Shown here: in pieces, positions 1 to 61,362 of the stretch
How positions within the stretch are numbered: the stretch's first letter is position 1
Layout: each line of letters begins with the position of its first letter
Assembly: GCA_041748075.1 (NCBI GenBank)
Contig: JBGTDX010000118.1
Coordinates: forward strand, 498-64,497
DNA: 64,000 bases
Direction: 5' to 3'
Source of the DNA: Thermoanaerobaculia bacterium
GTDB lineage: Bacteria; Acidobacteriota; Thermoanaerobaculia; Gp7-AA8
Translations under genes and position numbers: made by a program
The notes under the pieces: model-generated
The model's input: only the letters and a program-made list of their open reading frames with translations
Databases searched by the model: none
What the model was told of the DNA's origin: nothing

Positions 1-1137
1 TACGGCCTGGTGACCGAGCTGATGCCGCTTTACATGCGGATGCGCGGCGCGTCGCTGACCGAGATCGGATTCATCAGCGCGGTCAGTTTCGCCTGGACGA
101 TCAAGCTGCTCTGGGCACCTCTGATCGATACGACCGGAACCTACAGGCGATGGATCGGAGTCTCGCTCGCCACACTCTGCGGTGCTCTCGCTCTTCTGGC
201 CGGCGTCGATCCATACGGGACTCCCCTGTTCTGGGTTCTTCTCGTCGCTCTCGCCGTCGCCTCGGCAACCCAGGACATTGCGATCGACGCGTTCACCATC
301 ACCGTCACCCCGCGCGAGCTGGTGGGGACCATCAACGCAACGCGCGTGACGGCCTACCGCGTAGCGATCATTATCGCGGGCGGGGGCCTCGCGGCGCTTG
401 CGAGCCGCACCGGCTGGAATGCGGCGTTCGGAGCCGCCGCAGTGCTGTTGCTCTGCGTGCTCGTTCTGGTTCCCTTCATGCCCGAGAGACGCGGCTCGGG
501 AACCAGCGCCGCAGGACTGATCCGGGGATTGCGGGCCTGGATCGTCCGGCGCGATGCGCTCGCGCTTCTGGGACTCGTGCTGCTCTTCAGGCTCGGTGAC
601 GCCGCACTCGCTCCGATGGTGAAACCTTTCTGGGTCGACCTCGGATACAGCGCTGCCGAGATCGGCACGGTGACGACGGTGCTCGGGATCTCCTTCACCA
701 TCATCGGAGCACTCATCGGTGGGCTCTTCGTAAATCGCTATGGGATCTTCAAGGCGCTGGTGATATTCGGCATCGTTCAGACGTTGTCGAACGGCGGCTA
801 CGCGCTCGTCGCGTCACTGGGAGGCGGAAGGCCTGCCATCTACGCCGCCTCCATCGTGGAGAATCTGACCGGCGGTCTCGGTGTAGCGGCGTTCCTTTCG
901 TTCCTCATGGCGATCTGCGACAAACGCCTGGCAGCAACCGAGTACGCGATGCTGACTGCGATCTTCGGACTCTCCCGGTCGATGGCCGGGACCCTGAGCG
1001 GAGTCGCTGCGGATGCGATGGGTTACGCCGGCTTCTTCTGGCTGACGGTCGCGCTGGGAGTTCCGGGACTTCTACTTCTGCCCCACGTGCGGCGCGAACT
1101 GGCCAGCCTGCCGGAGCGGGGAAGTTCTGAGTTGTGA
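1..1137 (+). CDS. ampG: AmpG/PAT-family MFS permease (muropeptide transporter-like), 5' end cut by window edge
   Basis: The frame is open from base 1 (ORF track 10..1137). It is a polytopic hydrophobic protein with a KLLWAPLID motif after an early TM, typical of AmpG-type MFS. The stop TGA at 1135-1137 lies inside the heptamer array. Confidence 0.7.
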   Translation, partial: YGLVTELMPLYMRMRGASLTEIGFISAVSFAWTIKLLWAPLIDTTGTYRRWIGVSLATLCGALALLAGVDPYGTPLFWVLLVALAVASATQDIAIDAFTITVTPRELVGTINATRVTAYRVAIIIAGGGLAALASRTGWNAAFGAAAVLLLCVLVLVPFMPERRGSGTSAAGLIRGLRAWIVRRDALALLGLVLLFRLGDAALAPMVKPFWVDLGYSAAEIGTVTTVLGISFTIIGALIGGLFVNRYGIFKALVIFGIVQTLSNGGYALVASLGGGRPAIYAASIVENLTGGLGVAAFLSFLMAICDKRLAATEYAMLTAIFGLSRSMAGTLSGVAADAMGYAGFFWLTVALGVPGLLLLPHVRRELASLPERGSSEL

Positions 1138-1257
1138 GTGGACCGGGGGAGAGTACTGAGTTGTAAGTTCCGAGTTCTGAGTTCACGCCCGCCCTCGTCG
1201 GCGCAGCGAAATGGCGGGTCGCCACTCACAACTCAGAACTCACAACTCAGAACTCCT
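1121..1257. repeat. Heptamer-array hairpin, unit GTTCTGA/GTTGTGA (5' arms) versus ACTCAGA/ACTCACA (3' arm)
   Basis: On the + strand, TGA falls at 1128 and 1135 (the ampG stop). A second run has 1157, TAA at 1164, CGA at 1171 and TGA at 1178, all spaced 7 nt. The complementary TCA run sits at 1226, 1233, 1240 and 1247. A central GC hairpin is CCCGCC (1188-1193) / GGCGGG (1213-1218). Confidence 0.85.
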
Positions 1258-1273
1258 CCGGTATAGTCGCCCG

Positions 1274-2130: not shown

Positions 2131-3489
2131 ATGTCACTCGCAAGTGGTTCGGACCCCGCAGGCCGCAGGAACCAGAGCACTCGACTTGGAGGACTCCAGT
2201 TGGCGAAAGACACACTGACAATCACCGACAACCGCACTGGCAAGACGTACGAGCTCCCCATCACCGAAGAGACCATCAAAGCGATCGACCTCAGACAGAT
2301 ACGGGTCGAGGATGACGACTTCGGAATGATGACCTACGACCCGGCCTTCATGAATACAGCGGCGACCAGGAGCGCCATCACCTTCATCGATGGTGACAAG
2401 GGAATCCTCGAGTACCGTGGCTATCCGATCGAGCAGCTGGCAGAGAAGAGCACCTACCTGGAAACGGCTTTTTTGCTGATTCACGGCCATCTGCCTTCGG
2501 CCGACGAGCTTCAGCACTGGAATCACAACATCATTCATCACACGATCCTTCACGAGAACATCAAGAAGCTGCTGGACAGCTTCCGATACGACGCCCATCC
2601 GATGGGGATGCTGATCTCGACCGTAGCCGCGCTCAGCACGTTCTATCCCGATGCCAAGAAGATTGATCAGCCGGATGTGCGGCTCAAGCAGATGTATCGC
2701 CTGATTGCCAAGGTGACGACCCTCGCGGCGTTCGCTTACCGACACAACATCGGAATGCCTTATGCCTATCCCGACAACGATCTGTCGTACACGGGCAACT
2801 TCCTGAACATGATGTACAAGATGACGGAAGTCCGGCACGAGCCCGATCCTGTGCTCGAGCGGGCGCTCGACGTTCTGTTCATCCTGCATGCGGATCATGA
2901 GCAGAACTGTTCGACCAGCGCGATGCGTTCGATCGGAAGTTCTCACGTCGATCCCTATTCCGCCGTCGCAGGAGCCGCGGCCGCTCTCTACGGACCGCTG
3001 CACGGTGGTGCCAATGAGGCCGTGATCCGGATGCTCACTGAGATCGGGTCCGTCTCGAATGTCTCGTCCTTCATCAAGAGCGTGAAGGAAGGTGATCGGA
3101 AGCTCATGGGATTCGGTCACCGCGTATACAAAAACTACGATCCGCGGGCCAAGATCATCAAAGCAATCGCCGACCAGGTGTTCGAGTCGACAGGAAGGAA
3201 TCCGCTTCTCGAAATTGCGCTCGAGCTGGAAAAGATCGCGCTCGAGGACGATTACTTCATCAAGCGCAAGCTGTATCCGAATGTCGACTTCTACTCCGGA
3301 CTGATTTACCAGGCCATGCAGTTTCCGCTCGACATGTTCCCCGTGCTGTTCGCGATCCCGCGAGTCTCAGGCTGGCTGGCGCAATGGCAGGAGATGCTCG
3401 TCGATCCGGATCAGAAAATTGCCCGTCCGCGCCAGATCTTCATCGGGGACGAGCGCCGCGATTACGTTCCCATCGACCAGCGGTCCTGA
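2131..3489 (+). CDS. gltA: Citrate synthase
   Basis: It carries the GFGHRVYKNYDPR signature, the LHGGANE motif and HADHEQNCST. The start was set to ATG 2131 (MSLASG...); the ORF track start at 2032 is possible but adds a non-conserved extension. Confidence 0.92.
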   Translation: MSLASGSDPAGRRNQSTRLGGLQLAKDTLTITDNRTGKTYELPITEETIKAIDLRQIRVEDDDFGMMTYDPAFMNTAATRSAITFIDGDKGILEYRGYPIEQLAEKSTYLETAFLLIHGHLPSADELQHWNHNIIHHTILHENIKKLLDSFRYDAHPMGMLISTVAALSTFYPDAKKIDQPDVRLKQMYRLIAKVTTLAAFAYRHNIGMPYAYPDNDLSYTGNFLNMMYKMTEVRHEPDPVLERALDVLFILHADHEQNCSTSAMRSIGSSHVDPYSAVAGAAAALYGPLHGGANEAVIRMLTEIGSVSNVSSFIKSVKEGDRKLMGFGHRVYKNYDPRAKIIKAIADQVFESTGRNPLLEIALELEKIALEDDYFIKRKLYPNVDFYSGLIYQAMQFPLDMFPVLFAIPRVSGWLAQWQEMLVDPDQKIARPRQIFIGDERRDYVPIDQRS

Positions 3490-3530
3490 TTCTCATGAGG
3501 CAGGGGAATCCCAGCCTCGTGGTCCCGGAC

Positions 3531-4397
3531 TCAGGCCCGGCCCGCTTCGGGCACTCGTTTCAATTGTCCGCACCACCACTCTCCCCGAGACGCCTCCCGC
3601 TCCAGCTTCAGCCCATGCAGGCGCGCCGCCGCGACGACGTCCTCTCGTCTCGTGGTGAGAATTCCGCTGACGATGAGCGCCGCATCCTCTTCGAGAAGGC
3701 GAATCGCGTCCGGCAGCAGTGGGATGATCACCTCCGGGATGATGTTCATCGTAGCGAGCGAAAAGCGGGCACCGCGAATTGCCTCGAGACTACCGACGAA
3801 ATGCAGCAACCTGTCTGAGGAAATCGAATTCCTCTTCAGATTCCCGCTGACCAATCCGAGCGTGTCGACATCGTTGTCACAGGCGACGACACGCGCGGCT
3901 TCCAGGCGCACCATTGCGATCGCGAGAAGTGCGGATCCGGTCCCGATGTCCAGACAATTCCGTCCGGCCAGGTCCATCGCCTCGAGCATCTCCAGACACA
4001 GCGCGGTGGTCTCGTGCGATCCGGTACCAAAGGCGCGCTCCTGCGGGATTACGATCGGAATGCGGTCGCCAGGCTCACCCTCGAGCAACCGCCGCTCGGG
4101 TGCAACGATGAATCGCCTGCCGATGAGCATCGGCTCGAGCGTTTGCTGGTACAGCTCCAGCCAGTCCTGTCGCGGCTGATCCACTGACCGGGTCTCGAGC
4201 CCCTCTACAACCGCGATTTCCTCGAGGAACCTGGCTCTGTCTTCCGGCGAGTCGAAGAACGCCGAGATCACGTGAAACCAGTCGTCTTCGAGCAGGATGT
4301 CGCCCGTCGAAGCGGAAAGAAACAAGAGTCCACGGACATGCTCCTCGAGCGGAGGATTGCCCGTCGGAATCGTGATCTCGAGAATGTAATCAATCAT
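3531..4397 (-). CDS. prmA: Ribosomal protein L11 methyltransferase PrmA
   Basis: It has GTGSHETTALCLE and the SAM motif DIGTGSALLAIA. It sits immediately downstream of dnaJ, as in the Bacillus hrcA operon. Confidence 0.88.
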   Translation of the reverse strand: MIDYILEITIPTGNPPLEEHVRGLLFLSASTGDILLEDDWFHVISAFFDSPEDRARFLEEIAVVEGLETRSVDQPRQDWLELYQQTLEPMLIGRRFIVAPERRLLEGEPGDRIPIVIPQERAFGTGSHETTALCLEMLEAMDLAGRNCLDIGTGSALLAIAMVRLEAARVVACDNDVDTLGLVSGNLKRNSISSDRLLHFVGSLEAIRGARFSLATMNIIPEVIIPLLPDAIRLLEEDAALIVSGILTTRREDVVAAARLHGLKLEREASRGEWWCGQLKRVPEAGRA

Positions 4398-4400
4398 CTC

Positions 4401-4588
4401 AAATGACGAATGACGAATGACGAGTGACGAATAGGGACCGCTGACATCATCGTAATGAACGGAAGAGCCCTCGTGCCCTCACTCGTCATTCGTCATTCGT
4501 CATTCGTCATTCGCCATTCGTCATTCGTCATTCGTCATTCGCCATTCGTCATTCGCCATTCGTCATTCGTCATTCGTCATTCGTCTCA
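4401..4588. repeat. Heptamer-array hairpin, unit AATGACG (5' arm, 4 units) / TCATTCG (3' arm, 14 units)
   Basis: On the + strand, TGA falls at 4404, 4411, 4418 and 4425. TCA or CCA then recurs every 7 nt from 4486 to 4577 (11 TCA, 3 CCA). Region 4401-4426 is the near-perfect reverse complement of 4479-4504 (about 25 bp stem, about 52-nt loop). The dnaJ stop (4586-4588) lies 9 nt from the last unit. Confidence 0.9.
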
Positions 4589-5704
4589 TCCCCCGAAGAA
4601 ATCCTTCATCTTGTCGAACACTCCGCGGCGCTCGGGTGGCTCCTCTCCTTCGAGAGTGGCGAGTTGATCGAGCAGAGCCCGCTGCTCGTCGCTCAGCGAT
4701 GTCGGCACTCTCACTGCCACATGAACGAAATGATCGCCTTTGCCCGTTCCGTCGACGAACGGCACACCCTTCCCGCGCAAGCGAAAGATCTGGTTCGGCT
4801 GGGTTCCGGAAGGAATTCTGAGGGTCTCTTCGCCATGGATCGTTTCGGTCTTCAGCTCGGCGCCGAGCGCCGCTTGCGTAAAAGAGATCGGCCGCTCGAC
4901 GTGGATGTCGTAGTCTCGTCTGGTGAATTTCTCATGTTCCGCGACGGCTATGAAGACGTAGAGGTCTCCCGATGGACCGCCATTGACGCCTCCCTCGCCC
5001 TCCCCGGCAACGCGGAGGCGTGAGCCGTCGTCCACTCCCGCAGGTACCTTGACCGACAGGGTCTTGCGCTCGCGAACCCGTCCGGCTCCACCGCAGTCAG
5101 GACAGGGATCTTTGATCACCTTGCCCGCGCCACCGCACTGAGGGCAGGTCCGCGAGACGGAAAAGAAACCCTGGGAGTACCGCACCTGTCCCGCTCCACC
5201 ACAACCATCGCAGGTGGCTGGAGACGTGCCGGGCTTCGACCCCGATCCTGAACAGTTCTGGCAGGCGATCGAGCGGGGAATCTCAATCGTCGCTTCCTTC
5301 CCGAACACGGCCTCTTCGAACTCCAGGTCGAGGTCATAGCGTAGATCATTACCACGCATGGGCCGGTTCGCGCGGCGCTTGCCGCCGCCGAATGCTTCGC
5401 CGAATCCGAACAGATCACCGAGGATGTCCGCGAAGTCCGTGAACTGCCCGGCGTCGAAGCCTCCGCCGACGTTCACTCCCTGATGGCCGTAGCGGTCATA
5501 CCGTGCACGCTTGTCCTGATCGGACAGAACACTCCAAGCCTCCGCGGCTTCTTTGAACTTTGCTTCCGCTTCGGGATTATCGGGATTCTTGTCGGGGTGA
5601 AACTTCACCGCGGCCTTCCGGTAGGCTTTCTTGATCTCTTCTACCGAGGCTTCCCGGTGGACATCGAGAACTTCGTAGTAATCGCGTTTTTGTGTCGTTG
5701 CCAT
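4586..5704 (-). CDS. dnaJ: Molecular chaperone DnaJ
   Basis: It has a J domain with HPD (KFHPDKNP), a G/F region and four CxxCxGxG zinc motifs ([32 protein letters not shown]). Confidence 0.97.
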
Positions 5705-9599: not shown

Positions 9600-10238
9600 A
9601 TGAAGAAACTCGCTCTTGTTCTGTTTCTGTCGCTGATTTACCCGAATCCAGCGGAATCTGCCATCGTGGATCGGATCGCGGCCACCATCGATCGGGAAGT
9701 CATCACGCTGAGCCAGATCGACCAGATCGTCATCGTCCGTCTGATTGCACAGCGGCCGGACGAAAGTGAAGACGACTACCGCCGGCGCGTTCTCAACGCA
9801 CTGATCGCGCAGACACTCAGGTACCGGGATGTCCAGCGTTTCGGTGTCGAAGATGTTTCTCCCGACGCGATCGAGTCCCGACTTCGAGTCGTTATCAGCC
9901 GTTTCAGCTCCGAGGACGAGTTCGTCGCCGCACTCCGTCGCGCCGAGCAATCCCTTGAGGATGTCCGGGCCTCCATCAGGCGGCAACTTCAGGTCGAGAA
10001 TTACATCGATGAGCGTTTCTCTCCGACGATCTTCGTATCCCTCGAAGAGATCGAGACCTACTACCGCGACGTCTGGCTTGCCCAACGGGCGGATCGAGGG
10101 CTCCCGCCGGTTCCGCTCGCCCAGGTGCGGGAGGAGATCCGAACGCTCCTCCGCGCTGACCGGCTGAGGGACCAGGTCGAGGTCTGGACCAGCCAGCTCC
10201 GAGCGAGCGCCAACGTCGACATCTTTGCCTACCGATAG
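9600..10238 (+). CDS. SurA N-terminal-domain periplasmic chaperone-like protein (no PPIase domain)
   Basis: It has a signal peptide (MKKLALVLFLSLIY), and the IVDRIAATIDREVITLSQID opening is typical of the SurA_N domain. The short length implies a chaperone module only. Confidence 0.65.
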   Translation: MKKLALVLFLSLIYPNPAESAIVDRIAATIDREVITLSQIDQIVIVRLIAQRPDESEDDYRRRVLNALIAQTLRYRDVQRFGVEDVSPDAIESRLRVVISRFSSEDEFVAALRRAEQSLEDVRASIRRQLQVENYIDERFSPTIFVSLEEIETYYRDVWLAQRADRGLPPVPLAQVREEIRTLLRADRLRDQVEVWTSQLRASANVDIFAYR

Positions 10239-10240
10239 CA

Positions 10241-10283
10241 ACTGAAGAATTTAGAATGAAAAATTCAGAATTCAGAAGGCTCA
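10241..10283. repeat. Short AT-rich heptamer array (TGAAGAA/TTAGAAT/TCAGAAT) between convergent genes
   Basis: The sequence is actgaagaatttagaatgaaaaattcagaattcagaaggctca. TGA/TAG fall in the 5' part (10243, 10252, 10256) and TCA in the 3' part (10265, 10272). The ligA stop TCA at 10281 lies 9 nt after the last unit. Arm complementarity is weak. Confidence 0.45.
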
Positions 10284-12272
10284 GCTCTCAAGAAGCGTGA
10301 TGAGCTGCTCCTCGGTGAGAATCGAAACTTTGAGCTTCTGAGCCTTGTCCAGCTTCGATCCTGCGTCGGCTCCCGCGACCAGATAGCTCGTCTTCGAGGA
10401 CACCGAATTGGAAGTCTTTCCGCCCTCCGCCTCGATCCACGCATGAATCTCGTCGCGCGTGAACCTCTCGAGGCTCCCTGTTACGACCACGGTCTTACCC
10501 GCGAGCCGGGTTCCCCGCTCGGCAACATGATGAACCGGGGCGACGCCAAGCTCGAGAAGTCTTCCGATGCGGTCCCGATTCGCCTCCAGTGAAAAGAAGA
10601 AAAGGATCGAGTCGGCCACGCGTGGCCCGACCTCGGGTACTTCGGTCAGCTCTTCCGACGTGGCAGCCATGAGCCGTTCGATCGTGTGGAACCGGTCGGC
10701 GAGCAGTTTTCCGCTCCTCTCCCCGATGAAGCGGATGCCGATGGCGAAGATCAGCCTCGAGAGCTCCCGGGGCTTTGATCGCTCGATCTGCTCGACGAGC
10801 TTGGAGGCTTTCTTTTCTGCGAAGCCTTCGAGCCGAAGCAGGTCATCATCTCGAAGCTCATAGAGAGACGTGTAATCACGGACCAGACCGGCGGTGACTA
10901 GCGCATCGACAACCTTTTCTCCGAGCCCCTCGATGTCCATCGCCTTACGGCCCGCGAAATGGATCAGAGCCTCTCGAACGATGGCCGGACATCCTGCGTT
11001 ACTACATCGCACGGCAACCTCGGCATCAAACCGATGCACCGGCTCGCCGCAGACCGGACAGCATTCCGGCACCGCGAGAGGCGTCGAATCGTCAGGACGT
11101 TCCGACAGAATCACGCCCGTGACTTTCGGAATGACGTCGCCGCCTTTTTCGACCAGAACCGTATCTCCCACCCGAATGTCTTTTCGAGCAACCTCGTCGT
11201 AGTTGTGAAGCGTCGCTCGACGAACGGTCGATCCTCCGATGTGCACCGGATCGAATTCGGCCACCGGTGTGATCGCACCGGTGCGCCCTACTTGCGCTCC
11301 GATCGAACGAATCACGGTTTTCGCCGCTTCGGGCGGGTACTTGAACGCGACCGCCCACCTGGGAGACCTGGCAGTCTGGCCCAGTTCGCCCTGCAATTCG
11401 CGGTCATTGACCTTCACGACGATTCCGTCGATCTCAAAGGAGAGTTCGTGACGCTTTTCACGCCACTCATCGAGAAGGGCGACGACCTCGTCGAGGCCCG
11501 CACAGACTCTCCGTTCCGGGTTCACCGGGAAGTGGAGCTCCCGGAGCAGCTCATAGGCCGCCGCCTGCGACGGGATGCGCAATCCGTCCGCCCGTACGAC
11601 CTGGTAAATGATCGCCCGCAGCCTTCTCGCCGAAACCAGCTTCGAATCTTTCATCCGGATGGCGCCGGCCGCCGCGTTTCTCGGATTCGCCAGCAGAGGC
11701 TCCCCCTCTTCATCCCTGATCCGGTTGAGCTCAGCGAAATCTTCCTTGTCCATATAGATCTCGCCCCGCACCTCGAGCGTTTCGAACTGCGAGTCGACCT
11801 GCAACGGCAGCGACCGGACGGTCCGCACGTTCGCGGTCACGTCATCTCCACGGACGCCGTCGCCGCGCGTCGCCGCCCTCGAGAGCCGGCCCTTCGAGTA
11901 GAGCAGATCGATCGAAAGTCCATCGATCTTCAATTCGGCGAGGTATTCGACCCTCTCGAGGCCCAGACCATTGCGTACCCGCTGATCCCACTCGCGAAGC
12001 TCATCGAATGTGTACGCGTTGTCGATGGACAGCATTGGTGGATCATGGACTACCGTCTCGAACTCATCGACCGGCGCTCCCCCCACACGGGCCGACGGTG
12101 AATCTTCGGTGCGAAACTCAGGATGCTGGTCCTCCAGTTCGATCAACCTTCTCATCAGCAGGTCGAACTGGTAGTCGCTGATCTCCGGAGCGTGTTCGAG
12201 GTAATAGAGCCGCTCGTGACGAACCAGCTCTTTGCGCAGTTTCTCTAGTTCTTTTTTCGGAGATTGAGGCAT
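10281..12272 (-). CDS. ligA: NAD-dependent DNA ligase LigA
   Basis: It has the adenylation motif ELKIDGLSI, an OB fold, a Cys4 zinc finger (CPVCGEPV...CSNAGC), HhH repeats and a C-terminal BRCT (GKTVVVTGSL). Confidence 0.97.
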   Translation of the reverse strand: MPQSPKKELEKLRKELVRHERLYYLEHAPEISDYQFDLLMRRLIELEDQHPEFRTEDSPSARVGGAPVDEFETVVHDPPMLSIDNAYTFDELREWDQRVRNGLGLERVEYLAELKIDGLSIDLLYSKGRLSRAATRGDGVRGDDVTANVRTVRSLPLQVDSQFETLEVRGEIYMDKEDFAELNRIRDEEGEPLLANPRNAAAGAIRMKDSKLVSARRLRAIIYQVVRADGLRIPSQAAAYELLRELHFPVNPERRVCAGLDEVVALLDEWREKRHELSFEIDGIVVKVNDRELQGELGQTARSPRWAVAFKYPPEAAKTVIRSIGAQVGRTGAITPVAEFDPVHIGGSTVRRATLHNYDEVARKDIRVGDTVLVEKGGDVIPKVTGVILSERPDDSTPLAVPECCPVCGEPVHRFDAEVAVRCSNAGCPAIVREALIHFAGRKAMDIEGLGEKVVDALVTAGLVRDYTSLYELRDDDLLRLEGFAEKKASKLVEQIERSKPRELSRLIFAIGIRFIGERSGKLLADRFHTIERLMAATSEELTEVPEVGPRVADSILFFFSLEANRDRIGRLLELGVAPVHHVAERGTRLAGKTVVVTGSLERFTRDEIHAWIEAEGGKTSNSVSSKTSYLVAGADAGSKLDKAQKLKVSILTEEQLITLLES

Positions 12273-12324: not shown

Positions 12325-12390
12325 CTAGTGGCCTGTATTGGTGAAATCGGGACCAGCGCTGGTCCCGATTTCACCAATATAGGCCACTAG
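12325..12390. repeat. 66-bp palindrome built from two inverted copies of a 33-nt unit (CTAGTGGCCTRTATTGGTGAAATCGGGACCAGC)
   Basis: Region 12325-12357 is the reverse complement of 12358-12390 with one difference (G at 12335 versus the complement of T at 12380). That difference is a G.U pair on the + strand. The palindrome begins and ends with CTAG. Confidence 0.95.
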
Positions 12391-12929
12391 GCGTTCCCTT
12401 CGGGCTCCGGCCTCACCCTCGAGAGGTATCTCGACCTGTCGACGAGTTTCTCGGCGAACCCGCGGGCGATGAGCCGGCGGTCGAGCTCCCGGAGCAAGTC
12501 TCTCCGTCCCCGAACCAGATTCAGATTCAGTGCGACGAATCGCATTCCGCGCGGCCCCTCGAAATAGACGATGAGGCGGTCGCCCGGAACCATCTGCTCG
12601 GTCCCGGAGATTCGGTTCCAGGAAATCGAACGGCTTCGCAGCTGATGAAGCGGCCGTAGAACGAGTGTCGACTCCCGCAACTCGGCGATCGGGTGGAACG
12701 TTCCAACGTAGACGCGGAGCCCACCGGCCCAGAGCGCTCCGAGGTAAACCCACACGTAGGCTTCACCGATCCATCCGTAACGGGCTCGAGGGGAAAGCAG
12801 GAACGCAGCCGCCAGGACGGCAGTGACGGCAGCCGCCACGAGCACAATGGAAAGCCCGGCACGGCGGACCCAGGGACGGAAAAAGAACGTCAATTCCTGG
12901 TGTCCGGCGCTAAGGGTTTTCGTTTTCAT
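12387..12929 (-). CDS. Hypothetical membrane protein (two N-terminal TM helices, soluble C-terminal domain)
   Basis: It is a 180-aa ORF with hydrophobic stretches (LSIVLVAAAVTAVLAAAFLL, VWVYLGALWAGGL). I recognise no family signature. The stop TAG (12389-12387) lies inside the palindrome terminus. Confidence 0.55.
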   Translation of the reverse strand: MKTKTLSAGHQELTFFFRPWVRRAGLSIVLVAAAVTAVLAAAFLLSPRARYGWIGEAYVWVYLGALWAGGLRVYVGTFHPIAELRESTLVLRPLHQLRSRSISWNRISGTEQMVPGDRLIVYFEGPRGMRFVALNLNLVRGRRDLLRELDRRLIARGFAEKLVDRSRYLSRVRPEPEGNA

Positions 12930-14388: not shown

Positions 14389-16053
<1,665 letters not shown>

Positions 16054-29516: not shown

Positions 29517-29641
29517 CGTGACAGCCTCAGTGTCCAGGCAACGGGGACGGAATGGGTAGAGGGCTGACAATGTGAAAGCCCGCCACCCGGTCGCAACTCC
29601 GCCGGGCAGCGGGCCGCCTGTCTTCTGCGATCTTTCTTACT

Positions 29642-34476: not shown

Positions 34477-34578
34477 GAAAGTTCAAGTCTTTAAATGATA
34501 GAGGGCGCAAGTATATACGGGATCAAGCACAGCCGCTATTGGAGCGTTATTCAAGAGCCGGGCCCGTCCCCCCGCCCA

Positions 34579-34647
34579 CCCGGTTCTGGGTTGTGCCCTC
34601 CCACCCCTTCCGCCGGTTCTGGGCGGGTGTGCAGAACTCAGAACCGG
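34579..34647. repeat. Degenerate member of the GTTCTGA/GTTGTGA family with a 9-bp hairpin
   Basis: cccggttctgggttgtg lies at 34579-34595. CCGGTTCTG (34613-34621) pairs with CAGAACCGG (34639-47). On the minus strand the sequence after the TAG stop (34652-34650) reads ggcccggttcTGAgttctg. Confidence 0.6.
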
Positions 34648-34649
34648 GC

Positions 34650-35750
34650 CTACGGGGGTCGGGAAAGCACCTTCCCGTACACTTCGAGAGTTCTTTCGAC
34701 CATCGCTCCGGTGGTGAATCCCTTTCGCACCCGCTCGTATCCGGCCTCCCCGAACTCTCGCCGCGACGGCTCGTCGTCGAGAAGCCGCGAGATTGCAGCG
34801 GCCAGCGCATCCGGATCGCTCGGCGGAACCGTATGTCCCGTTTCTCCGTCGAGGGAGACCAGCGGCACTCCGGAAGGCAGCGACGTGTTGATGACCGGAG
34901 TCCGGGCTGCCATCGCTTCGAGCTGCACGATTCCGAAAGCCTCGCTCTTCGCGATCGACGGGAGGACGAAAACATCAGCGGCGTGATACCAGGCGGGTAT
35001 GTCGTCTACTGCCCCGAGAATCGTGATCTTTTCCTGCTGGCCCGTCTCGCGCACGAGCTGCTCGAGCTCAGACTGAAGCGGACCCTCGCCGATGATAACG
35101 AGCTTTCCCTCAACTTCTCTCATCGCGCGTACGAGGAACTCGAATCCCTTGTAGTAGACGAGGCGGCCAAGAGCCAATACGAGCCGCGGTCCGTACTTGT
35201 TGCGAATCGCCTCCACGTCAGTCTGTCCGGCAGATGAAAAGGTCTCCAGATCGATTCCGTACGGCACGATATGACACCGCTCCGCGTATTGCGAAAGGAT
35301 GGGCGACATCTCGACATGATTCCGGGTCGCCGCGATCACGGCGCTCGCACGCCCCAGCGCCCGATGAAGAACAGGCAGAAAGAGCGGTCCCAGAAGCTTC
35401 TGCCGGACCGTGTCGCCGTGGTAGCTGATTACCAGCTTCCCGACCGGCCGGGTCAGCCATGCAAGGGTGGCGAATGGATTCGGATGATGGAGATGCACGA
35501 TGTCCGGCCTGGCCATCTGCAGTTCCCGTCGGATCCCGCGGACAAGCGGAGCGGAAGCGACCTGCAGCATCTGTCCCAGCCGGACGAGATCGACTCCTTC
35601 GGGCCGTTCCCGCACGGTTTCGCGTCCCGAGCTGGCGACGAGCACTGTAAGGTCCACGCGATCCTTCAGGCCGACGGCCAGATTCCTCAGGTGCGTTTCG
35701 ATGCCGCCGAGAACGGGAGGATAGAACTTCCCAATATGAACGACGCGCAT
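34650..35750 (-). CDS. Glycosyltransferase family 4 (GT-B, group 1)
   Basis: It has the N-terminal MRVVHIGKFYPPVLGGIE and an EX7E motif (EAFGIVQLEAMAARTPV). Confidence 0.85.
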   Translation of the reverse strand: MRVVHIGKFYPPVLGGIETHLRNLAVGLKDRVDLTVLVASSGRETVRERPEGVDLVRLGQMLQVASAPLVRGIRRELQMARPDIVHLHHPNPFATLAWLTRPVGKLVISYHGDTVRQKLLGPLFLPVLHRALGRASAVIAATRNHVEMSPILSQYAERCHIVPYGIDLETFSSAGQTDVEAIRNKYGPRLVLALGRLVYYKGFEFLVRAMREVEGKLVIIGEGPLQSELEQLVRETGQQEKITILGAVDDIPAWYHAADVFVLPSIAKSEAFGIVQLEAMAARTPVINTSLPSGVPLVSLDGETGHTVPPSDPDALAAAISRLLDDEPSRREFGEAGYERVRKGFTTGAMVERTLEVYGKVLSRPP

Positions 35751-35757
35751 CGTAAAT

Positions 35758-35866
35758 CAAAGATGAAGGATGAAAGATGAAGGATGAAGCCCCCACACGA
35801 CAGACGGGGTCAGAGGCCGGGCTTCATCGTTCATCGTTCATCTTTCATCTTTGTCTTTTCATCCTT
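35758..35866. repeat. Heptamer-array hairpin, unit AGGATGA/AAGATGA (5' arm) / TTCATCG-type (3' arm)
   Basis: On the + strand, TGA falls at 35764, 35771, 35778 and 35785. TCA falls at 35824, 35831, 35838, 35845, (TGT at 35852) and 35859, the last being the gmd stop codon, exactly in phase. The stem is about 28 bp with 3 mismatches and the loop is about 30 nt. Confidence 0.9.
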
Positions 35867-36863
35867 GAATCGGCGCGGCGGCTCGCTCGGCCCGTTCCGC
35901 CTGCTCGAGGTCGGACTGGACCATCTCGGTCACCAGTTCACGGAAGGTATATCGAGGTTGCCATCCGAGAAGTTTGCGCGCCTTGGCTGCGTTTCCGGCG
36001 AGTATCTCGACCTCAGCCGGACGGTAATAGCGTTCGTCCACTTTCACGTACTGCTGGTAGTCCAGACCCAGTTCACCGAACGCGAGCTCGCAGAATTCAC
36101 GGACGCTGTGAGTCTCCCCCATCGCGATGACGAAGTCATCCGGCTCCGAATGCTGGAGCATCAGGTGCATGGCCCGGACGTAATCCGAGGCATGTCCCCA
36201 GTCCCTCATCGCGTCGAGGTTGCCGATGCGCAGCTCGGAGGCGACACCCAGCTTGATTCTCGCGGCGGTGCTCGTGATTTTTCGCGTCACGAACTCGTGC
36301 CCCCTGCGGGGCCCTTCGTGATTGAACAGAATGCCGCTCGAGCAGAACATCCCGTAGGCTTCGCGGTAGTTCCGGGTCAGCTCGAAGCCCGCTACCTTGC
36401 TGATTCCGTACGGGCTGCGCGGATGAAACGGTGTACTTTCACTCTGAGGAGTCTCCCGGACCTTTCCGAACATCTCACTCGAGCCGGCGAAATAGAACCG
36501 GCACGCGGGCCTCAGCTCGCGGAGGGCAGCCAGCATGTAGTGGGTGCCGTTGATGTTCGTATTCATCGTCGAGAAGCCGTCGGCAAAGCTCTCCGCCACG
36601 AAACTCTGCGCCGCCAGGTGGTAGCACTCGTCGAACTCGTTGCGGCTCATCACGTTGAAGATGCTTGGATAGCTCTCGAGGCTCGCGCCGTGAAGTGTCA
36701 CGCGATCCATCAGATGGTTAATCCGTCCGAATCTCTGGGTCGGCGCTTCGAGAGCGACCCGTCGAACGAGGCCGTGAACTTCGTATCCGAACTCCAGCAG
36801 GTGTTCGGCCAGGTAACTCCCGTCCTGTCCCGTGATACCCGTGATGAGTGCTTTCCTGGTCAC
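35859..36863 (-). CDS. gmd: GDP-mannose 4,6-dehydratase
   Basis: It has ALITGITGQDGSYLAEHLL, SSEMFG and a YxxxK context (SPYGISKV), with typical length. Confidence 0.95.
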   Translation of the reverse strand: MTRKALITGITGQDGSYLAEHLLEFGYEVHGLVRRVALEAPTQRFGRINHLMDRVTLHGASLESYPSIFNVMSRNEFDECYHLAAQSFVAESFADGFSTMNTNINGTHYMLAALRELRPACRFYFAGSSEMFGKVRETPQSESTPFHPRSPYGISKVAGFELTRNYREAYGMFCSSGILFNHEGPRRGHEFVTRKITSTAARIKLGVASELRIGNLDAMRDWGHASDYVRAMHLMLQHSEPDDFVIAMGETHSVREFCELAFGELGLDYQQYVKVDERYYRPAEVEILAGNAAKARKLLGWQPRYTFRELVTEMVQSDLEQAERAERAAAPIQG

Positions 36864-49975: not shown

Positions 49976-49989
49976 GCGGAAGCGAGGAT

Positions 49990-50067
49990 CAAAGATGAAG
50001 GATGAAGGATGAAAAAACCGCCCAGCCGTATGGAGACAGGGCGTGCTTCATCGCTCATCTTCGTCAT
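49990..50067. repeat. Heptamer-array hairpin, GATGAAG family (second locus)
   Basis: On the + strand, TGA falls at 49996, 50003 and 50010, and TCA at 50048 and 50055. The BY-kinase stop TCA lies at 50064, 9 nt later. AAGATGAAGGATGAAG (49992-50007) pairs with CTTCATCGCTCATCTT (50046-50061) at 14 of 16 positions. Confidence 0.8.
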
Positions 50068-52241
50068 GCGATTCCCGACTCGGGACTCGAGGAGGTCGCC
50101 CCCTGCTCGCTGTAGTAGTGGTAATACCTGCCCCCGTAAGCAGTCGGATCGTCTTCGAGGTTGTTGATCAGGACGCCGAGAATGCGGACGTTGCTTCGGA
50201 GCATCTTGTCGCGAACCCTGGCAACGTGCTCGCGCGGCGTATCTCCACCCTTGACGCAGAGAACAGCACCATCTGCGCGATACCCGAGGAGAATCGCATC
50301 GGAGACCATGGAGATCGGTGGCGTGTCGATCACGACAAAGTCGTAATTCGAGGCAGAGCTCTTCAAGAGATCCGCCATCGCATCGGAGGCGAGCAGCCCG
50401 GAGGGGTTCGGCGAGAGCGGTCCTGCCGGAATGACAGACAACCCCGGGAACGACGTCTTCACAGTGATATCAGCGGGCCTGGCGTTCTCGGCGAGGATCG
50501 TTACGAGGCCGGCGCGGTTCGAGATCCGGAGCACCTCGTGGGTGCGCGGCTTGTGAAGGTCCGCATCGATGAGCAGAACGTTCTTGCCGAGCTGACCGAG
50601 AACGATTGAGAGATTGAGCGCGGTGGACGTCTTGCCTTCGGCCGGAACGCTCGATGTGATCACGATCGACTTCACCCCTCCGGCACGTGAGAGCAGAAGA
50701 GCGGTCCGGAATGCGCGATAGGCCTCGGCAGCCGTGGTCCGTGGGTGCTCGTGAGGAAGCAGCTCAACGGATTGCTTCGCTGCCTTCTCGCCGTCGTCCT
50801 GGAACTGTTTCCTCCGTTTTTTCAGTACGTAGGGATAGCTGTACCGGCGATGTGACGGTGCCCCGACGGCCGGAATCACGCCGAGTGCGGGCAGCTGCAG
50901 ATACTGCTCGACCTGCTCGGGCGAGCGGAGGCTGCGGTCGAGGTATTCCCGAAGGAACGCGAGTCCGAGACCGATTGCAGCACCGAACAGCAGCGCATTG
51001 AGTGCGTTGCGGCTGTAGGAGGGCCGAAAGCGGGCTCCCGGAGGAAGCGCGTCGTCGACGACTCGAACATTCGATACACCCTGCCCCCGCAGGCGCGAAG
51101 TCACTTCCGTTTCGGCCTGCTGCTCGAGCAGATTGTCATGCAGCGCTCTCTTGGTTTTTACCTCGACGGCCAGAGTGTTGTACTGCACGGCGTCGCTGTT
51201 GAGCGCCATCGCCTCGCCCTTCTGGCCCTGCATCACGGCGCGGAGGCTGTCCTCGCGCCGCCGGGCGGTGAGATACTCGCTCCGGGCCACTTCTCTGGCA
51301 CGAGCGGCGGTTTCCCGGGTGAATGTCCGCAAATGCTGGCTTCCCTTGTCGATCTGCGCCTTGAGCTGCTGCATCGCAGGCCACTCCGGCTTATAGAGGT
51401 TCAGCTTCTCGGCATACTCCCGCTCGAGGCGAGCCTGCTCGGTACGAAGCTGCGCGGTCTCTCCGTCGGAGAGCGTGTCGGCAATCGCATCCGGAGAGGC
51501 GTTCTGGAGCTCCCTGAAACGGGCCTCCCTCGCGACACGGTCCGCCACCGCCGCCGAATAATCGGAGTTCAGCGATTCGAGGTTCTGAAGTGTGACGTTC
51601 GTCTGCGGATTGTCGGAGATGATGCCCTTCTCCCGCCCGTACGCCTGAAGCTCCAGTTCCTTCGCATCGATCTCGTTCTTCAGCTGCGCGATCTGCGTTG
51701 CGATGAACGACGAGGTCTGGTCGACCGCCTGCAACTTCGATTCGATGTTCCACTGAATATATTCGTCTGCCGTCAGGTTCGCGATCTGCGCGGCCTGCTC
51801 GGGCGAGTCCCCGACGTACGACAACTCGATCAGACTGGTCCCGCGGATCGGATTCGCCTCCAGATTTGCCTGAATCTCAGCGGCCGAAACTTCGCTGGCT
51901 GCCTCAGGCTCCAATCGTGACAGCACCCGTTCCGCGACCCCGCGGCTCTTCATCAGACGAGTCTGCGTCGGAAGAAATTCGGGATCCAGCGCGCTGAATG
52001 GACGCTGCGTGCCGATCTCGAGCAGACTGGCCGTGTCCCTTTCGACATTCAGCACGGCTGTCGCACGGTAGCTTCGCTCCGAGAGGACCGAAATGAGGAG
52101 ACCCACCAGGAGCGCGATACCGATGGAGACCAGGATCAGCCTCTGGTGCTTGAGAATTACAGCCCAATAGTGCGCCAGATGGACATCCTGCTGCGGCTCA
52201 TCGGCACGGAATTCGTAGGGGGCTTCGTTCTGATTCGACAT
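50064..52241 (-). CDS. Polysaccharide co-polymerase / BY-kinase (Wzc/GumC-EpsG type, fused Wzz domain + CpsD-like ATPase)
   Basis: It has an N-terminal Wzz domain with two TM helices, a long coiled coil, Walker A (SSVPAEGKTSTALNLS), Walker A'/B (LLIDADL, VVIDTPP) and a C-terminal Tyr cluster (YGGRYYHYY). Confidence 0.92.
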   Translation of the reverse strand: MSNQNEAPYEFRADEPQQDVHLAHYWAVILKHQRLILVSIGIALLVGLLISVLSERSYRATAVLNVERDTASLLEIGTQRPFSALDPEFLPTQTRLMKSRGVAERVLSRLEPEAASEVSAAEIQANLEANPIRGTSLIELSYVGDSPEQAAQIANLTADEYIQWNIESKLQAVDQTSSFIATQIAQLKNEIDAKELELQAYGREKGIISDNPQTNVTLQNLESLNSDYSAAVADRVAREARFRELQNASPDAIADTLSDGETAQLRTEQARLEREYAEKLNLYKPEWPAMQQLKAQIDKGSQHLRTFTRETAARAREVARSEYLTARRREDSLRAVMQGQKGEAMALNSDAVQYNTLAVEVKTKRALHDNLLEQQAETEVTSRLRGQGVSNVRVVDDALPPGARFRPSYSRNALNALLFGAAIGLGLAFLREYLDRSLRSPEQVEQYLQLPALGVIPAVGAPSHRRYSYPYVLKKRRKQFQDDGEKAAKQSVELLPHEHPRTTAAEAYRAFRTALLLSRAGGVKSIVITSSVPAEGKTSTALNLSIVLGQLGKNVLLIDADLHKPRTHEVLRISNRAGLVTILAENARPADITVKTSFPGLSVIPAGPLSPNPSGLLASDAMADLLKSSASNYDFVVIDTPPISMVSDAILLGYRADGAVLCVKGGDTPREHVARVRDKMLRSNVRILGVLINNLEDDPTAYGGRYYHYYSEQGATSSSPESGIA

Positions 52242-55807: not shown

Positions 55808-55913
55808 CTCAGGCGCTCGTTCCGACGTACGACGTACGACGGAAACAGAAACGGGGACACGCTGGACCCGATCCCCGCTGGCATTTCCGCAAACCACCAG
55901 CGAGAATGAACTC

Positions 55914-60882: not shown

Positions 60883-60980
60883 GGAGGCGAACGAGGTCTG
60901 GTGGCCTCCGCGGTCTTCAAAACCGTTGTTTCGGCGCGGAAGCGTCGAAGGGTCGGTTCGATTCCGACCCGCCTCCGCCA
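60883..60980 (+). tRNA. selC: tRNA-Sec (selenocysteine tRNA, anticodon UCA)
   Basis: It is 98 nt. The 6-bp D-stem GAGGTC/GGCCTC has a 4-nt loop TGGT. The anticodon loop is CTTCAAA (TCA). The long variable arm is TTCGGCG-cggaag-CGTCGAA (7 bp). The T-arm is GGTCGG-TTCGATT-CCGACC. The acceptor plus T helices total 13 bp, the discriminator is G, and CCA is encoded. Confidence 0.85.
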
Positions 60981-60984
60981 TTTC

Positions 60985-61018: not shown

Positions 61019-61032
61019 CCCAATCGCCCGCG

Positions 61033-61111: not shown

Positions 61112-61158
61112 AGGCGAGTATTCGACTCCAACGCACCGCGCCGGTAGGCGCGGCAGAC

Positions 61159-61311: not shown

Positions 61312-61362
61312 CTCTGTTGCGCCTCCGGCGCATGGCATTACTTTGTTGCGCGCTCCACTCCC

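Follow-up and report, generated by a model that had tools for sequence, protein, structure and literature searches.

Heptameric simple sequence repeats (SSRs) have been known since 2007 as the commonest long SSR in prokaryotes (Mrazek 2007, as cited in later work), and they are attributed to slippage. Individual cases have been reported from cyanobacteria, Xanthomonas, Geobacter and Beggiatoaceae, with no accepted origin or function. The GGGAATC repeats of Xanthomonas have 2–26 copies in about 185 arrays per genome, of which some 90% are intergenic, with a mean distance of 28 nt to the preceding ORF as against 160 nt to the next one. Each genome holds 70–75 pairs, all convergent with the G-rich arm first, and length and sequence vary among close species (Rehm et al. 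2015; PMC4692102). For the hairpins of cyanobacterial STRR sequences, roles in transcript stability or translational coupling have been proposed. In Geobacter metallireducens, a 'class 3' site consists of five tandem MTYCTGA heptamers (N4TGA), and eight opposite-strand pairs with variable spacing were found, one of them between proB and proA (Aklujkar et al. 2009; PMC2700814). Direct repeats of TAACTGA in Beggiatoaceae, Cyanobacteria and Bacteroidetes are mostly intergenic and common to distant lineages, and the stops that they place in all frames were noted to limit their overlap with gene ends (MacGregor 2015; PMC4679880). The (ATCTTTC)n repeat in the 5'-UTR of H. influenzae hmw is transcribed and folds into a long RNA hairpin. 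Experiments have shown that RNase III cleaves it and that it undergoes phase variation, and expression is tuned by the number of units (Rapun-Araiz et al. 2025; PMC12721329).

The arrays described here, from a Thermoanaerobaculia bacterium (Acidobacteriota), belong to this class of heptamer repeats, which is described but little understood, and are not a new kind of element. A sequence-only reading knew of no described repeat class with these properties, but there are precedents in Xanthomonas, cyanobacteria, Geobacter and the TAACTGA repeats; even the three-frame stop property had already been noted for TAACTGA. The arrays show the features of heptanucleotide LSSR or STRR repeats, with at least three head-to-tail 7-nt units, an excess of period 7, a mainly intergenic position and, among relatives, variation in unit number.

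Heptamer elements of the window

The window, i.e. the whole stretch of 64,000 nt that was analysed, contains six arrays with period 7 and none with periods 4–6 or 8–12 in a lag scan. At equal stringency, period 7 and the best other period gave 6 and 0 arrays in the window, 12 and at most 3 in loci of the same class, and 37 and at most 10 in other Acidobacteriota, so the excess also exists in related loci of the phylum. Most of the length lies outside predicted genes in 67 of the 78 arrays, in surveyed sequence that is about 82% coding. The general layout consists of two inverted arrays of 7-nt units on either side of a GC-rich core hairpin. Such elements occupy short spacers between mostly co-directional genes, and extend from the stop codon of the upstream gene, which may be overlapped, to 4–20 nt before the next start codon. 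Gene assignments are supported by Pfam for DnaJ, PrmA, LigA, GMD, BY-kinase and CpsB among the ten window proteins scanned, and the gene labelled 'ampG' encodes an MFS transporter. Counts of convergent and divergent gene contexts were set aside, the ORF-based gene calls being crude (the dnaJ–prmA spacer of relative L014 was miscalled divergent). At the gathering score, Rfam recognized a tRNA-Sec and one tRNA in the whole window and gave no match for the arrays; below threshold, positions 4300–4700 attracted only plant miRNA-precursor hairpins, which were judged meaningless.

The element between dnaJ and prmA is encoded on the minus strand. The dnaJ stop codon TGA (4586–4588, TCA on the plus strand) is followed 9 nt later, in frame, by the first TGA of the long arm (4479–4585, minus strand). 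This arm comprises 15.3 units (TRF score 186), reading TCATTCG on the plus strand and GACGAAT/GGCGAAT on the sense strand, and is purine-rich and TGA-bearing on the transcript side; about 11 of its units are without a partner. An inter-arm core with short inner pairings (4433–4478, minus strand) leads to the short arm (4402–4432, minus strand; 4.4 units by TRF, AATGACG on the plus strand and CGTCATT on the sense strand), whose end is 4 nt away from the prmA start codon (4395–4397). The sequence-only reading was accurate base for base in placing TGA at 4404, 4411, 4418 and 4425 of the plus strand, TCA or CCA at each 7 nt from 4486 to 4577 (14 units), and the stop codon at 9 nt. The long stem that it proposed is confirmed: the two 26-nt stretches 4402–4427 and 4479–4504 are 100% complementary and lie 51 nt apart. 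By TRF, copy numbers are 4.4 + 15.3 at 4402–4585 and 4–4.6 at the remaining window loci. Short-read assemblies are broken by such arrays, and one Logan contig ends within the dnaJ array. The region downstream of dnaJ was also considered as a strong hot spot, which was rejected at about two-fold over background.

The same architecture had been claimed for six other loci, and four of these (1121, 34579, 35758 and 49990) do fold stably. The GAGTTCT/GAGTTGT element has a 5' arm at 1121–1184 (plus strand; blocks 1123–1141 and 1158–1184), a GC-rich core hairpin (GCCCGCC...GGCGGGT; 1185–1221, plus strand) and a 3' arm of 4.6 ACTCACA/ACTCAGA units with a 14-nt super-period (1222–1255, plus strand). 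Its units form the final codons and the stop (1135–1137) of the MFS transporter gene, and the predicted RNA fold of 1118–1262 (plus strand) has a dG of −69.4 kcal/mol (z −5.3). A small GAGTTCT-family element between GT1 and a GT4-family gene (34569–34658, minus strand) carries two-unit arms (34579–34593 and 34632–34647) around a GC core (fold 34572–34655, minus strand; −47.9 kcal/mol, z −3.5). The first GATGAAR element (35756–35868, minus strand; arms 35758–35792 and 35819–35868, core 35793–35818) fills the gmd–GT1 spacer, the gmd stop (35859–35861) being an in-phase array unit and GT1 starting at 35750 (fold 35752–35870, minus strand; −51.3 kcal/mol, z −7.8). The second (49985–50067, minus strand; arms 49985–50014 and 50046–50067) lies in the BY-kinase/CpsB spacer, with the BY-kinase stop at 50064–50066 (fold 49978–50072, minus strand; −33.7 kcal/mol, z −4.2), and in its core (50015–50045) the sense strand has a GC stem with U6 directly behind it, the layout of a canonical intrinsic terminator. 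The two GATGAAR elements have the arm ends ATCAAAGATGAAGGATGAA and GCTTCATCGYTCATC in common and unrelated cores. The two other claimed loci held up less well. The AGAATTC/GAATTCT array that follows ligA, ahead of the neighbouring gene (10243–10277, minus strand; claimed from 10241), is weak and is predicted to fold no better than shuffles (10236–10290, z −0.4), and the GAGTTCT/GAGTTGT array 11 nt past the tRNA-Sec gene (60987–61017, plus strand, claimed from 60985; tRNA-Sec 60883–60976) is one-armed, with no partner and a fold z of +1.0 in 60977–61035.

Together with the dnaJ–prmA element (fold 4390–4600, minus strand; −77.5 kcal/mol, z −3.9), five window loci thus have stable predicted hairpins of −34 to −78 kcal/mol, with z from −3.5 to −7.8, and no shuffle equalled any of them. 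The predicted stems are 25–45 bp long and end 4–20 nt ahead of the downstream start codon. As in hmw, a heptamer SSR stem of at least 20 bp is thus predicted just upstream of a gene, transcription being assumed from the operon context.

Variation, stop codons and arm polarity

Among relatives, array length rises and falls by 7 or 14 nt at a time, and a 13-nt indel in a TAGGGAC arm distinguishes L166 from L167–170 in samples with identical flanks. These observations agree with the slippage-like growth suggested earlier. In the near-identical genomes L171 and L173 the unit numbers are unchanged from the window. The gmd–GT1 arms are conserved in L171 and L172, and between window and L172 they are identical at 65 of 69 positions (94%; four-fold sites 42%), with an unalignable core; the GT1–GT4 site in L172 has five units and retains the GAGTTCT family. 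The dnaJ–prmA array is absent in the nearest DnaJ relative (26-nt spacer) and in relatives of 77–78% (1–13 nt), so that this particular array is dispensable. The DnaJ protein of the nearest relative is 92% identical and its four-fold sites are saturated (43%), and the absence of the array there is thus no proof of its youth. The matches listed in the DnaJ metagenome scan were nearly all distant Acidobacteriota. At dnaJ–prmA, L014 and the window differ by unit turnover. A terminator-like core at 29517–29641 is conserved at 16272–16431 of L172, with heptamer arms around it in L172 only, and plain hairpins occupy orthologous sites at window positions 12325–12390 (a heptamer hairpin in L014) and at 14420–14560 of L014.

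An association of the arrays with stop codons, as the sequence-only reading had proposed, is well supported by the numbers. Unit families bearing TGA make up 25 of 54 (46%) against 20% expected (p 1e-5), families with any stop 36 of 54 against 35.5% (p 3e-6), and array and real stop share a phase in 8 of the 13 cases examined, where 1 in 7 would be expected. Arrays that overlap gene ends supply the stop at 1135–1137 and 35859–35861 of the window and for gmd and GT1 of L172; further cases are found in L175, L166 (dnaK) and L014. The ORF of GT1 in L172 ends only at the second TGA of the array, the first one lying in another frame. The stop triplet of the unit equals the real stop, being TGA in the window and TAG in L166 and L014. 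Of the stop placement claimed for the window, the in-phase cases (the MFS transporter gene and gmd) were found, and so was the spacing of 9 nt at dnaJ, the BY-kinase gene and ligA, which gives these genes a second in-frame TGA two codons past the stop; the 9-nt spacing was not seen in relatives. Nor does TGA define the elements, as had been thought: families of the same lineage such as GGCAGAA, GAGAGGC and GGTTGTC lack a stop on either strand, and TAGGGAC carries TAG. TGA is enriched in the units, but it is neither universal nor their defining feature. Mini-ORFs of 5 codons are present in each frame of the GACGAAT and GATGAAR arrays. A 'ribosome relay' via ATGA start–stop overlaps was rejected as a general rule, CTGA being as common as ATGA across families. 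A census of long-ORF ends at IMG/VR arrays was discarded as confounded, since all-frame stops end spurious long ORFs in a GC-rich genome. Gene callers may be misled by arrays at gene ends.

The order of the arms is a purine- or G-rich-first polarity rather than a TGA rule, and it does not extend to other Acidobacteriota. The earlier observation that the TGA arm is always 5' holds in all six two-armed cases of the window. In loci of the class, the purine-rich arm comes first in a ratio of 13:2, on both strands; IMG/VR contigs with the same units gave 52:0 (22:0 by family), which makes 65:2 for the two sets pooled. In other Acidobacteriota both polarities are present (6:8). Purine content predicts polarity even when stops are absent or located on the second arm. 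Moreover, a paired array provides a stop-bearing arm on every transcript in either order, and arm order is therefore uninformative on stop function. In a tblastn search, window proteins had no match at the IMG/VR array loci.

Role and origin of the elements

The most likely reading, to which we give about an even chance, is that the elements are RNA hairpins between cistrons that have grown by slippage and serve as terminators, stabilisers or sites of processing. In its favour are the excess of period 7, the mainly intergenic position, the stable predicted folds, the terminator-like cores, the copy-number polymorphism, the stop enrichment and phasing, the constraint on the gmd–GT1 arms, the polarity, and the precedents from Xanthomonas, the STRR hairpins and hmw, the last of them experimental. 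The arrays would grow by replication slippage, and template switching over the palindrome would maintain the complementarity of the two arms. Stop-bearing units may be favoured because only these can spread over a gene end without lengthening the protein. Within operon mRNAs, transcribed elements would fold to hairpins of 25–45 bp, which could act as REP/BIME-like elements or as U-tract-poor bidirectional terminators, attenuating read-through and shielding the 3' end of the upstream cistron. REP and BIME sequences stabilise upstream mRNA and can reduce translation if located within about 15 nt of the stop. The downstream start region may be occluded or gated by the hairpin, via RNase III or the terminating ribosome, with unit number serving as a tuning knob. 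The polarity could be accounted for by the pyrimidine-rich 3' arm, which would form a weak RNA:DNA hybrid by the same physical logic as the U-tract of a terminator. If the elements are indeed tunable intercistronic hairpins, they would offer a cheap way to set expression ratios within operons and a source of rapid variation.

Several observations count against an RNA role. A U-run follows the stem in only two elements (U6 in 49985–50067, and the L082 hairpin), the other window loci being without one, and a scan of the window for canonical promoter and terminator consensus sequences gave no excess over shuffles. Sense and antisense folds compare as 6:4 in stability, G–U pairs are few, and the transcribed strand is not singled out; a role at the DNA level fits this lack of asymmetry equally well. 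The dispensability of the dnaJ–prmA array and the mixed polarity elsewhere have to be added.

Slippage and template switching leave two details unexplained, namely the conservation of unit sequence beyond pairing needs and the unit variants of the two L014 arms, which occur in the same order and are not mirrored.

A different origin, which we consider rather unlikely, is that the elements are REP- or MITE-like and non-autonomous. A trans-acting enzyme (RAYT-like or other) would recognise the arms and copy them to other places, in many cases around terminator hairpins already there, and slippage would only modulate arm length. Such copying would fit the recurrence of unit families at different sites in different genomes, with GAATGTT in L003, L082 and L174, GGCAGAA-like units in L003, L014, L018 and L172, GATGAAR together with GAGTTCT in the window and L172, and GATGAAR and TGACGAA arrays in more than 150 IMG/VR contigs. 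It would also fit the replacement of GATGAAR by GAATGTT at one site in the 81% relative L174, the shared arm ends around unrelated cores, presence and absence at dnaJ–prmA, and arms that stay conserved when neutral sites are saturated. However, a mobile element is expected to bring its own core, and neither target-site duplications or flanking direct repeats nor a conserved element boundary were seen at the two GATGAAR elements. With internal sequences that cannot be aligned between copies, the elements do not resemble MITEs, and variable heptamer numbers and unrelated cores within a family take the place of the shared 20–40 nt imperfect-palindrome consensus of REP/BIME sequences. The frequent phasing with the upstream stop and the agreement between unit and real stop triplets also speak against copying, and the ten window proteins scanned against Pfam included no candidate enzyme or RAYT link. 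TTGAT at the element end was considered as an IS200/IS605-type target and rejected, as it is not conserved in L172.

More generally, we would suggest only tentatively that the arms are more than slippage products and are recognised by a trans-acting factor of their own. This could be a nuclease or transposase that spreads them, or a protein that binds RNA or DNA with a reading step of one 7-nt unit. Such a factor would explain why the unit families are few and conserved across saturated divergence, why the purine-first polarity is strict, and why arms surround unrelated terminator cores. It would amount to a REP-like system with tandem-heptamer arms and could also explain the long-noted heptamer excess in many bacterial phyla.

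It is improbable that the elements are functionless microsatellites, by-products of neutral slippage and palindrome template switching that are tolerated in spacers. Copy-number polymorphism, the missing dnaJ–prmA array in relatives, unit turnover at orthologous sites (dnaJ–prmA in L014; L174), the absence of strand asymmetry in RNA stability and the general prevalence of slippage-derived heptamers are all as would be expected of such by-products. Nevertheless, neutrality would not keep the gmd–GT1 arms at 94% identity at saturated synonymous divergence next to a free core, nor the GAGTTCT family at the GT1–GT4 site, and neither the strict purine-first polarity (65:2) nor the limited, recurrent unit repertoire is expected from it.

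A dedicated three-frame translational stop, which the sequence-only reading had offered as one explanation and which would act as a barrier to read-through or frameshifted ribosomes before the next gene, appears quite improbable. The enrichment of TGA and of stops in general, the in-phase stops supplied by arrays, the termination of GT1 in L172 by the second array TGA and the second in-frame TGA of three window genes speak for it, but several families of the lineage are stop-free on both strands, and the enrichment is equally explained by a filter for tolerance at gene ends, as argued for TAACTGA (PMC4679880). In addition, three units would be enough for a barrier, yet arrays reach 15–29 units and are accompanied by a stop-free complementary arm, and polarity tracks purine content also in pairs that have no stop or have it on the second arm.

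The omega repressor of inc18 plasmids recognises contiguous WATCACW heptads, with a preference for direct or converging arrangements over diverging ones. It is very improbable that the elements are double-stranded DNA sites, read either by a multimerising protein that places a dimer on each heptad, as omega does, or by nucleoid proteins (IHF/HU), as proposed for Geobacter, with protein geometry setting the convergent arm order. In favour are the strictness of the convergent order, the unit AA[A/G/C]GATG with six fixed positions and position 3 mismatched between arms, i.e. conservation beyond pairing needs, and the annotation of the MTYCTGA pairs in Geobacter as putative sites of global regulators (PMC2700814). 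Against it, the many unit families per genome would call for a large number of proteins or a specificity that is very loose, the arrays lie between stop and start codons and not at promoters, variable GC hairpin cores of 25–50 nt set the arms apart, and there is no known candidate protein.

Comparison with described repeat systems

To the cases described so far, the present elements add a soil phylum, the Acidobacteriota. They also show three regularities, expressed in numbers, with which any explanation has to agree: an arm order that in one lineage almost always puts the purine-rich arm first and in its sister lineages does not; overlap with gene ends in which the array supplies the stop codon in phase; and arm sequences that are constant at saturated synonymous divergence, yet vary in unit number between strains.

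With the Xanthomonas pairs the elements share the convergent arrangement close behind an ORF, the arm with G>C coming first in 15 of 15 class pairs. The Xanthomonas repeats are a single G-tract family, studied as a G-quadruplex former, whereas here several families occur, most of which lack G-tracts while TGA or TAG is present in many, and their arms enclose a GC core hairpin and in many cases extend over the stop codon. Cyanobacterial STRR sequences are similar in having several 7-nt families per genome and intergenic, hairpin-forming arrays in operons (hupS–hupL); they belong to another phylum and have other units, and polarity or a relation to stop codons goes unreported in the parts of the STRR descriptions compared. 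The MTYCTGA heptamers of Geobacter are one family, read as DNA sites of global regulators (IHF/HU), and their stops and hairpins were left unanalysed (PMC2700814). TAACTGA is an N4TGA heptamer like the window units; in contrast to the elements described here, it forms 169 direct sets against one inverted set, located just upstream of start codons, and it is not predicted to fold.

REP/BIME sequences of enterobacteria and pseudomonads are likewise dispersed intergenic palindromes, often within operons just past stops, with a conserved family consensus and site-dependent presence. REPs are single imperfect palindromes of 20–40 nt with a conserved head, mobilised by RAYTs, whereas the arms found here are tandem heptamers of variable number. 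Bidirectional intrinsic terminators resemble the elements in having a GC core hairpin with pairable flanks, purine- or A-rich on the 5' side and pyrimidine- or U-rich on the 3' side, in a layout that reads alike on both strands, and one window element has a true U6; their flanks are A and U runs, whereas here the flanks are long heptamer arrays, mostly without a U-run, inside operons. As for hmw, its ATCTTTC unit is the complement of the AAAGATG unit of the window; the right arm of the hmw hairpin is a G-rich non-repeat region.

Inverted heptamer arrays around GC-rich cores

Rereading of the plus strand at the dnaJ-prmA locus reproduced the positions of the sequence-only reading exactly: TGA stands at 4404, 4411, 4418 and 4425, TCA or CCA follows at 7-nt intervals between 4486 and 4577, and the dnaJ stop (TCA on this strand, 4586-4588) lies 9 nt past the last array unit. 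Tandem Repeats Finder reports AATGACG x4.4 at 4402-4432 and TCATTCG x15.3 at 4479-4585 (score 186), both on the plus strand, with other period-7 arrays at 1158-1255, 10243-10277, 35759-35849, 49985-50013 and 60987-61017. Since a lag-autocorrelation scan of the window gave six arrays of period 7 and none of periods 4-6 or 8-12, the excess is far beyond chance. In many arrays two unit variants alternate, giving a 14-nt super-period.

Segments 4402-4427 and 4479-4504 are 100% complementary, and at five of the loci proposed as hairpins the RNA folds are much more stable than dinucleotide shuffles: 4390-4600 (minus strand, dG -77.5 kcal/mol, z -3.9), 1118-1262 (plus, -69.4, z -5.3), 35752-35870 (minus, -51.3, z -7.8), 49978-50072 (minus, -33.7, z -4.2) and 34572-34655 (minus, -47.9, z -3.5). 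The fold at 10241-10283 is not significant (z -0.4), and 60985-61018 is indeed one-armed, its partner being absent. The flanking genes, named broadly correctly before, encode DnaJ, PrmA, LigA and GMD, as well as a BY-kinase with a CpsB phosphatase behind it; the gene previously called ampG encodes an MFS transporter.

In a full element a self-folding GC-rich core lies between a 5' array and a 3' one whose unit is complementary. Such elements occupy short spacers separating co-directional genes; they overlap the upstream stop or start at or a few nt past it, and end 4-20 nt 5' of the next start codon. The core at 50015-50045 has the form of a canonical intrinsic terminator, with U6 on the sense strand after a GC stem. 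Between convergent genes, a terminator-like core (GC hairpin, then TTTC) is kept at 29517-29641 and at 16272-16431 of L172 (an 82% relative); AGTAGAC arms around it are complete only in L172, the window having a degenerate 5' remnant (AGTAAGA AAGATCG CAGAAGA). Orthologous spacers may differ between genomes, one with a heptamer hairpin and its counterpart with a plain one. Thus the spacer upstream of ligA holds a non-heptamer palindrome in the window (12325-12390, 35-nt arms, 97% complementary) and a large heptamer hairpin in L014, the locus syntenic with the window (3262-3499), whereas the heptamer element at 1121-1257 is replaced in L014 by a plain GC hairpin.

In L014 3262-3499 the variants TAGAGGC, TGGAGGC, GAGAGGC and GAGAGAC follow the same left-to-right order in both arms; the units are reverse-complemented and their order is not mirrored, which simple inverted duplication would not produce. 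Locus L175 contains a heptamer palindrome of about 200 nt with a 5-nt loop (14666-14869), in which the outer units pair (GTGGCAA/TTGCCAC) and the inner runs differ (ATGACAA vs TCACTAG), which suggests independent expansion of the arms beside the loop.

Other repeats also occur in the window. The non-coding stretch 60977-61330, 3' of tRNA-Sec (60883-60976), combines a one-armed GAGTTCT array (60987-61017), GCCGTT, 13-nt and 25-nt tandem repeats (61033-61111) and a pair of inverted 50-nt arms, 92% complementary (61146-61195/61275-61324). A perfect (CGACGTA) x2.7 array at 55821-55843 lies about 70 nt 5' of the plus-strand gene starting at 55914, within a doubtful predicted ORF. Repeats of 12, 15 and 24 nt at 58579-58613 and 58761-58825 (CCT-rich, and GGCGTCGTCGGCGGTGTGGAGGGA x2.7) are probably within a coding region.

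Stop codons and arm order

The TGA that had been taken as constant in the unit is enriched, although not universal. Among unit families of the Acidobacteriota loci, 25 of 54 carry it on one strand (46% vs 20% under the null, p 1.4e-5) and 36 of 54 carry some stop (67% vs 35.5%, p 3e-6), CTGA/TCAG being the most enriched tetramer; GGCAGAA, GAGAGGC and GGTTGTC are stop-free, and TAGGGAC and TAGAGGC use TAG. When arrays lie within 25 nt of an upstream stop (n=28), 16 have a stop triplet in sense and 9 a triplet identical to the real stop; of 13 such cases read directly, 8 have array and real stop in the same phase, vs 1/7 expected. The postulated relation to stops holds as regards phase; the exact 9-nt spacing, found solely in the three window cases, may be due to chance.

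Several genes end in array units, which make up their last codons and stop. Array-supplied stops are found in the MFS gene (1135-1137) and gmd (35859-35861) of the window, in gmd of L172 (with a different unit), in GT1 of L172 (which ends at the second array TGA, the first being out of frame), in a glycosyltransferase of L175 (first array TGA of 14666-14869) and, as TAG, in dnaK of metagenome sample L166 and the L014 homologue of window 12387-12929. The GACGAAT and GATGAAR arrays (4479-4585, 35758-35792) have ATGA every 7 nt, so that each of the three frames contains a chain of mini-ORFs five codons long (MTNDE, MKDEG); as a general family property such chains were discarded, CTGA being as common as ATGA.

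The arm order described earlier, TGA arm first, persists in Thermoanaerobaculia-like loci, but what underlies it in general is base composition, the arm rich in G and purines lying 5' (G>C-first 15:0, purine-first 13:2). Other Acidobacteriota are split 6:8. As an independent check, IMG/VR was scanned for GATGAAR and TGACGAA arrays; among 52 paired elements, 24 of them of families outside this search, 50 were G-first and 52 purine-first (22:0 by family). As each transcript receives one stop-bearing arm in either order, arm order says nothing on stop function.

Spread, turnover and arm conservation

In the species-representative genome set, DnaJ is matched best by Thermoanaerobaculia MAGs (65-76% identity), followed by other Acidobacteriota (51-59%). 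Loci of the former (249 kb) hold 12 period-7 arrays vs at most 3 of any other period, those of the latter (1.17 Mb) 37 vs at most 10; the arrays are overwhelmingly intergenic, and their units vary from genome to genome. GATGAAR or TGACGAA arrays, in some cases both, are present in more than 150 IMG/VR contigs that are classed as viral (median GC 60.7%). In one (L303), two successive genes take their stop and their ATG, respectively, from a 3-unit TGACGAA array, the second gene being a DNA methyltransferase-like ORF. An Acidobacterium MAG has a (CCCTAAA)n array directly 3' of dnaJ (L075, 11233-11264), whose unit equals the plant-type telomere repeat, presumably by coincidence.

Unit-number variation, for which a comparison had been proposed, does occur: a TAGGGAC hairpin separates dnaK from dnaJ in five metagenome samples that share one DnaJ protein, and one of them, with identical flanks, departs from the rest by a 13-nt indel in its 3' arm and a single substitution in its 5' arm. 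A Logan short-read contig with the exact DnaJ of the window (L001, 3901-3925) ends 24 nt into the array, a typical assembly break; such arrays probably fragment MAG assemblies of this lineage. The dnaJ-prmA array is missing in the nearest DnaJ relative (92% protein identity, spacer 26 nt), where four-fold sites are already saturated (43% identical), and in the 77-78% relatives (spacer 1-13 nt); L014, syntenic over 16 kb, has a hairpin of other units there (AGATGGC, GGCAGAA).

The gmd-GT1 element differs by one base in L171 (a 96% relative). Its arms are 65/69 identical to those of L172, with equal unit count, against 42% identity at four-fold sites in the genes on either side and a core that is unalignable; since concerted evolution ties the units together, the 69 positions count as about 7 independent ones (p ~0.002). 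The adjacent GT1-GT4 spacer has likewise retained its GAGTTCT family. At the BY-kinase/CpsB spacer, L174 (an 81% relative) instead has a hairpin of the GAATGTT family, which occurs at other sites in L003 and L082, and the two GATGAAR elements of the window share arm ends but not cores. The arrays are thus labile in length and site, drawing on a small unit repertoire that is conserved over long times.

Possible function and known heptamer repeats

The earlier suggestion of slippage at stop codons is partly right. Arrays would grow by slippage, and arm complementarity may be maintained via template switching across the palindrome, an established mutational route for quasipalindromes. Stop-bearing units would be favoured because only these can cross a gene end without lengthening the protein. 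In operon transcripts, the elements are predicted to fold to 25-45 bp stems, similar to REP/BIME or to U-tract-poor bidirectional terminators, which could weaken read-through, shield the upstream cistron and keep the downstream start region closed until RNase III or a terminating ribosome opens the stem. A pyrimidine-rich RNA 3' arm gives the weakest class of RNA:DNA hybrid, following U-tract logic, and purine-first polarity fits this terminator-like reading. A need for graded expression within operons likewise fits the sites dnaK-dnaJ, dnaJ-prmA, gmd-glycosyltransferase and BY-kinase-phosphatase.

That the elements work as RNA hairpins is nevertheless tentative, somewhat short of an even chance. 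Predicted RNA stability has no strand asymmetry (6:4), canonical terminators are not in excess in the window, and unit sequence is conserved beyond pairing needs: in AA[A/G/C]GATG, position 3 is mismatched between arms and the other six are fixed. With the unmirrored order in L014 and the mixed polarity in other Acidobacteriota, these misfits leave some room for a REP-like mobile system that works through a trans-acting factor, which we consider unlikely. They do the same for a DNA-binding protein reading the heptads, which is very improbable.

An RNA-hairpin function and membership of a known repeat class, taken jointly, stand at even odds; membership by itself, in a new phylum and of a class lacking a mechanistic explanation, is highly probable. 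The view that no such class had been described must be abandoned, although the literature searched yielded no description of heptamer arrays in Acidobacteriota. Worth carrying forward are the polarity, the in-phase supply of stops and the conservation of arms across saturated divergence. Of the long simple repeats in prokaryotes, heptanucleotides are in most genomes the most abundant, which was ascribed to polymerase slippage (Mrazek et al. 2007, as represented in a citing paper). Xanthomonas genomes contain about 185 GGGAATC arrays each, about 90% of them intergenic and on average 28 nt behind the upstream ORF vs 160 nt to the next, with 70-75 pairs that are always convergent (PMC4692102), and Geobacter metallireducens has sites of five tandem MTYCTGA heptamers, arranged as eight opposite-strand pairs (PMC2700814). 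Cyanobacterial STRR heptamers form hairpins within operons, for which transcript stability or translational coupling was proposed, and TAACTGA repeats of Beggiatoaceae, Cyanobacteria and Bacteroidetes place stops in all frames, limiting gene-end overlap (PMC4679880). In H. influenzae, (ATCTTTC)n upstream of hmw1A is transcribed into a long hairpin cleaved by RNase III, and its unit number sets hmw1A expression (PMC12721329); this unit is the complement of the AAAGATG of the window.
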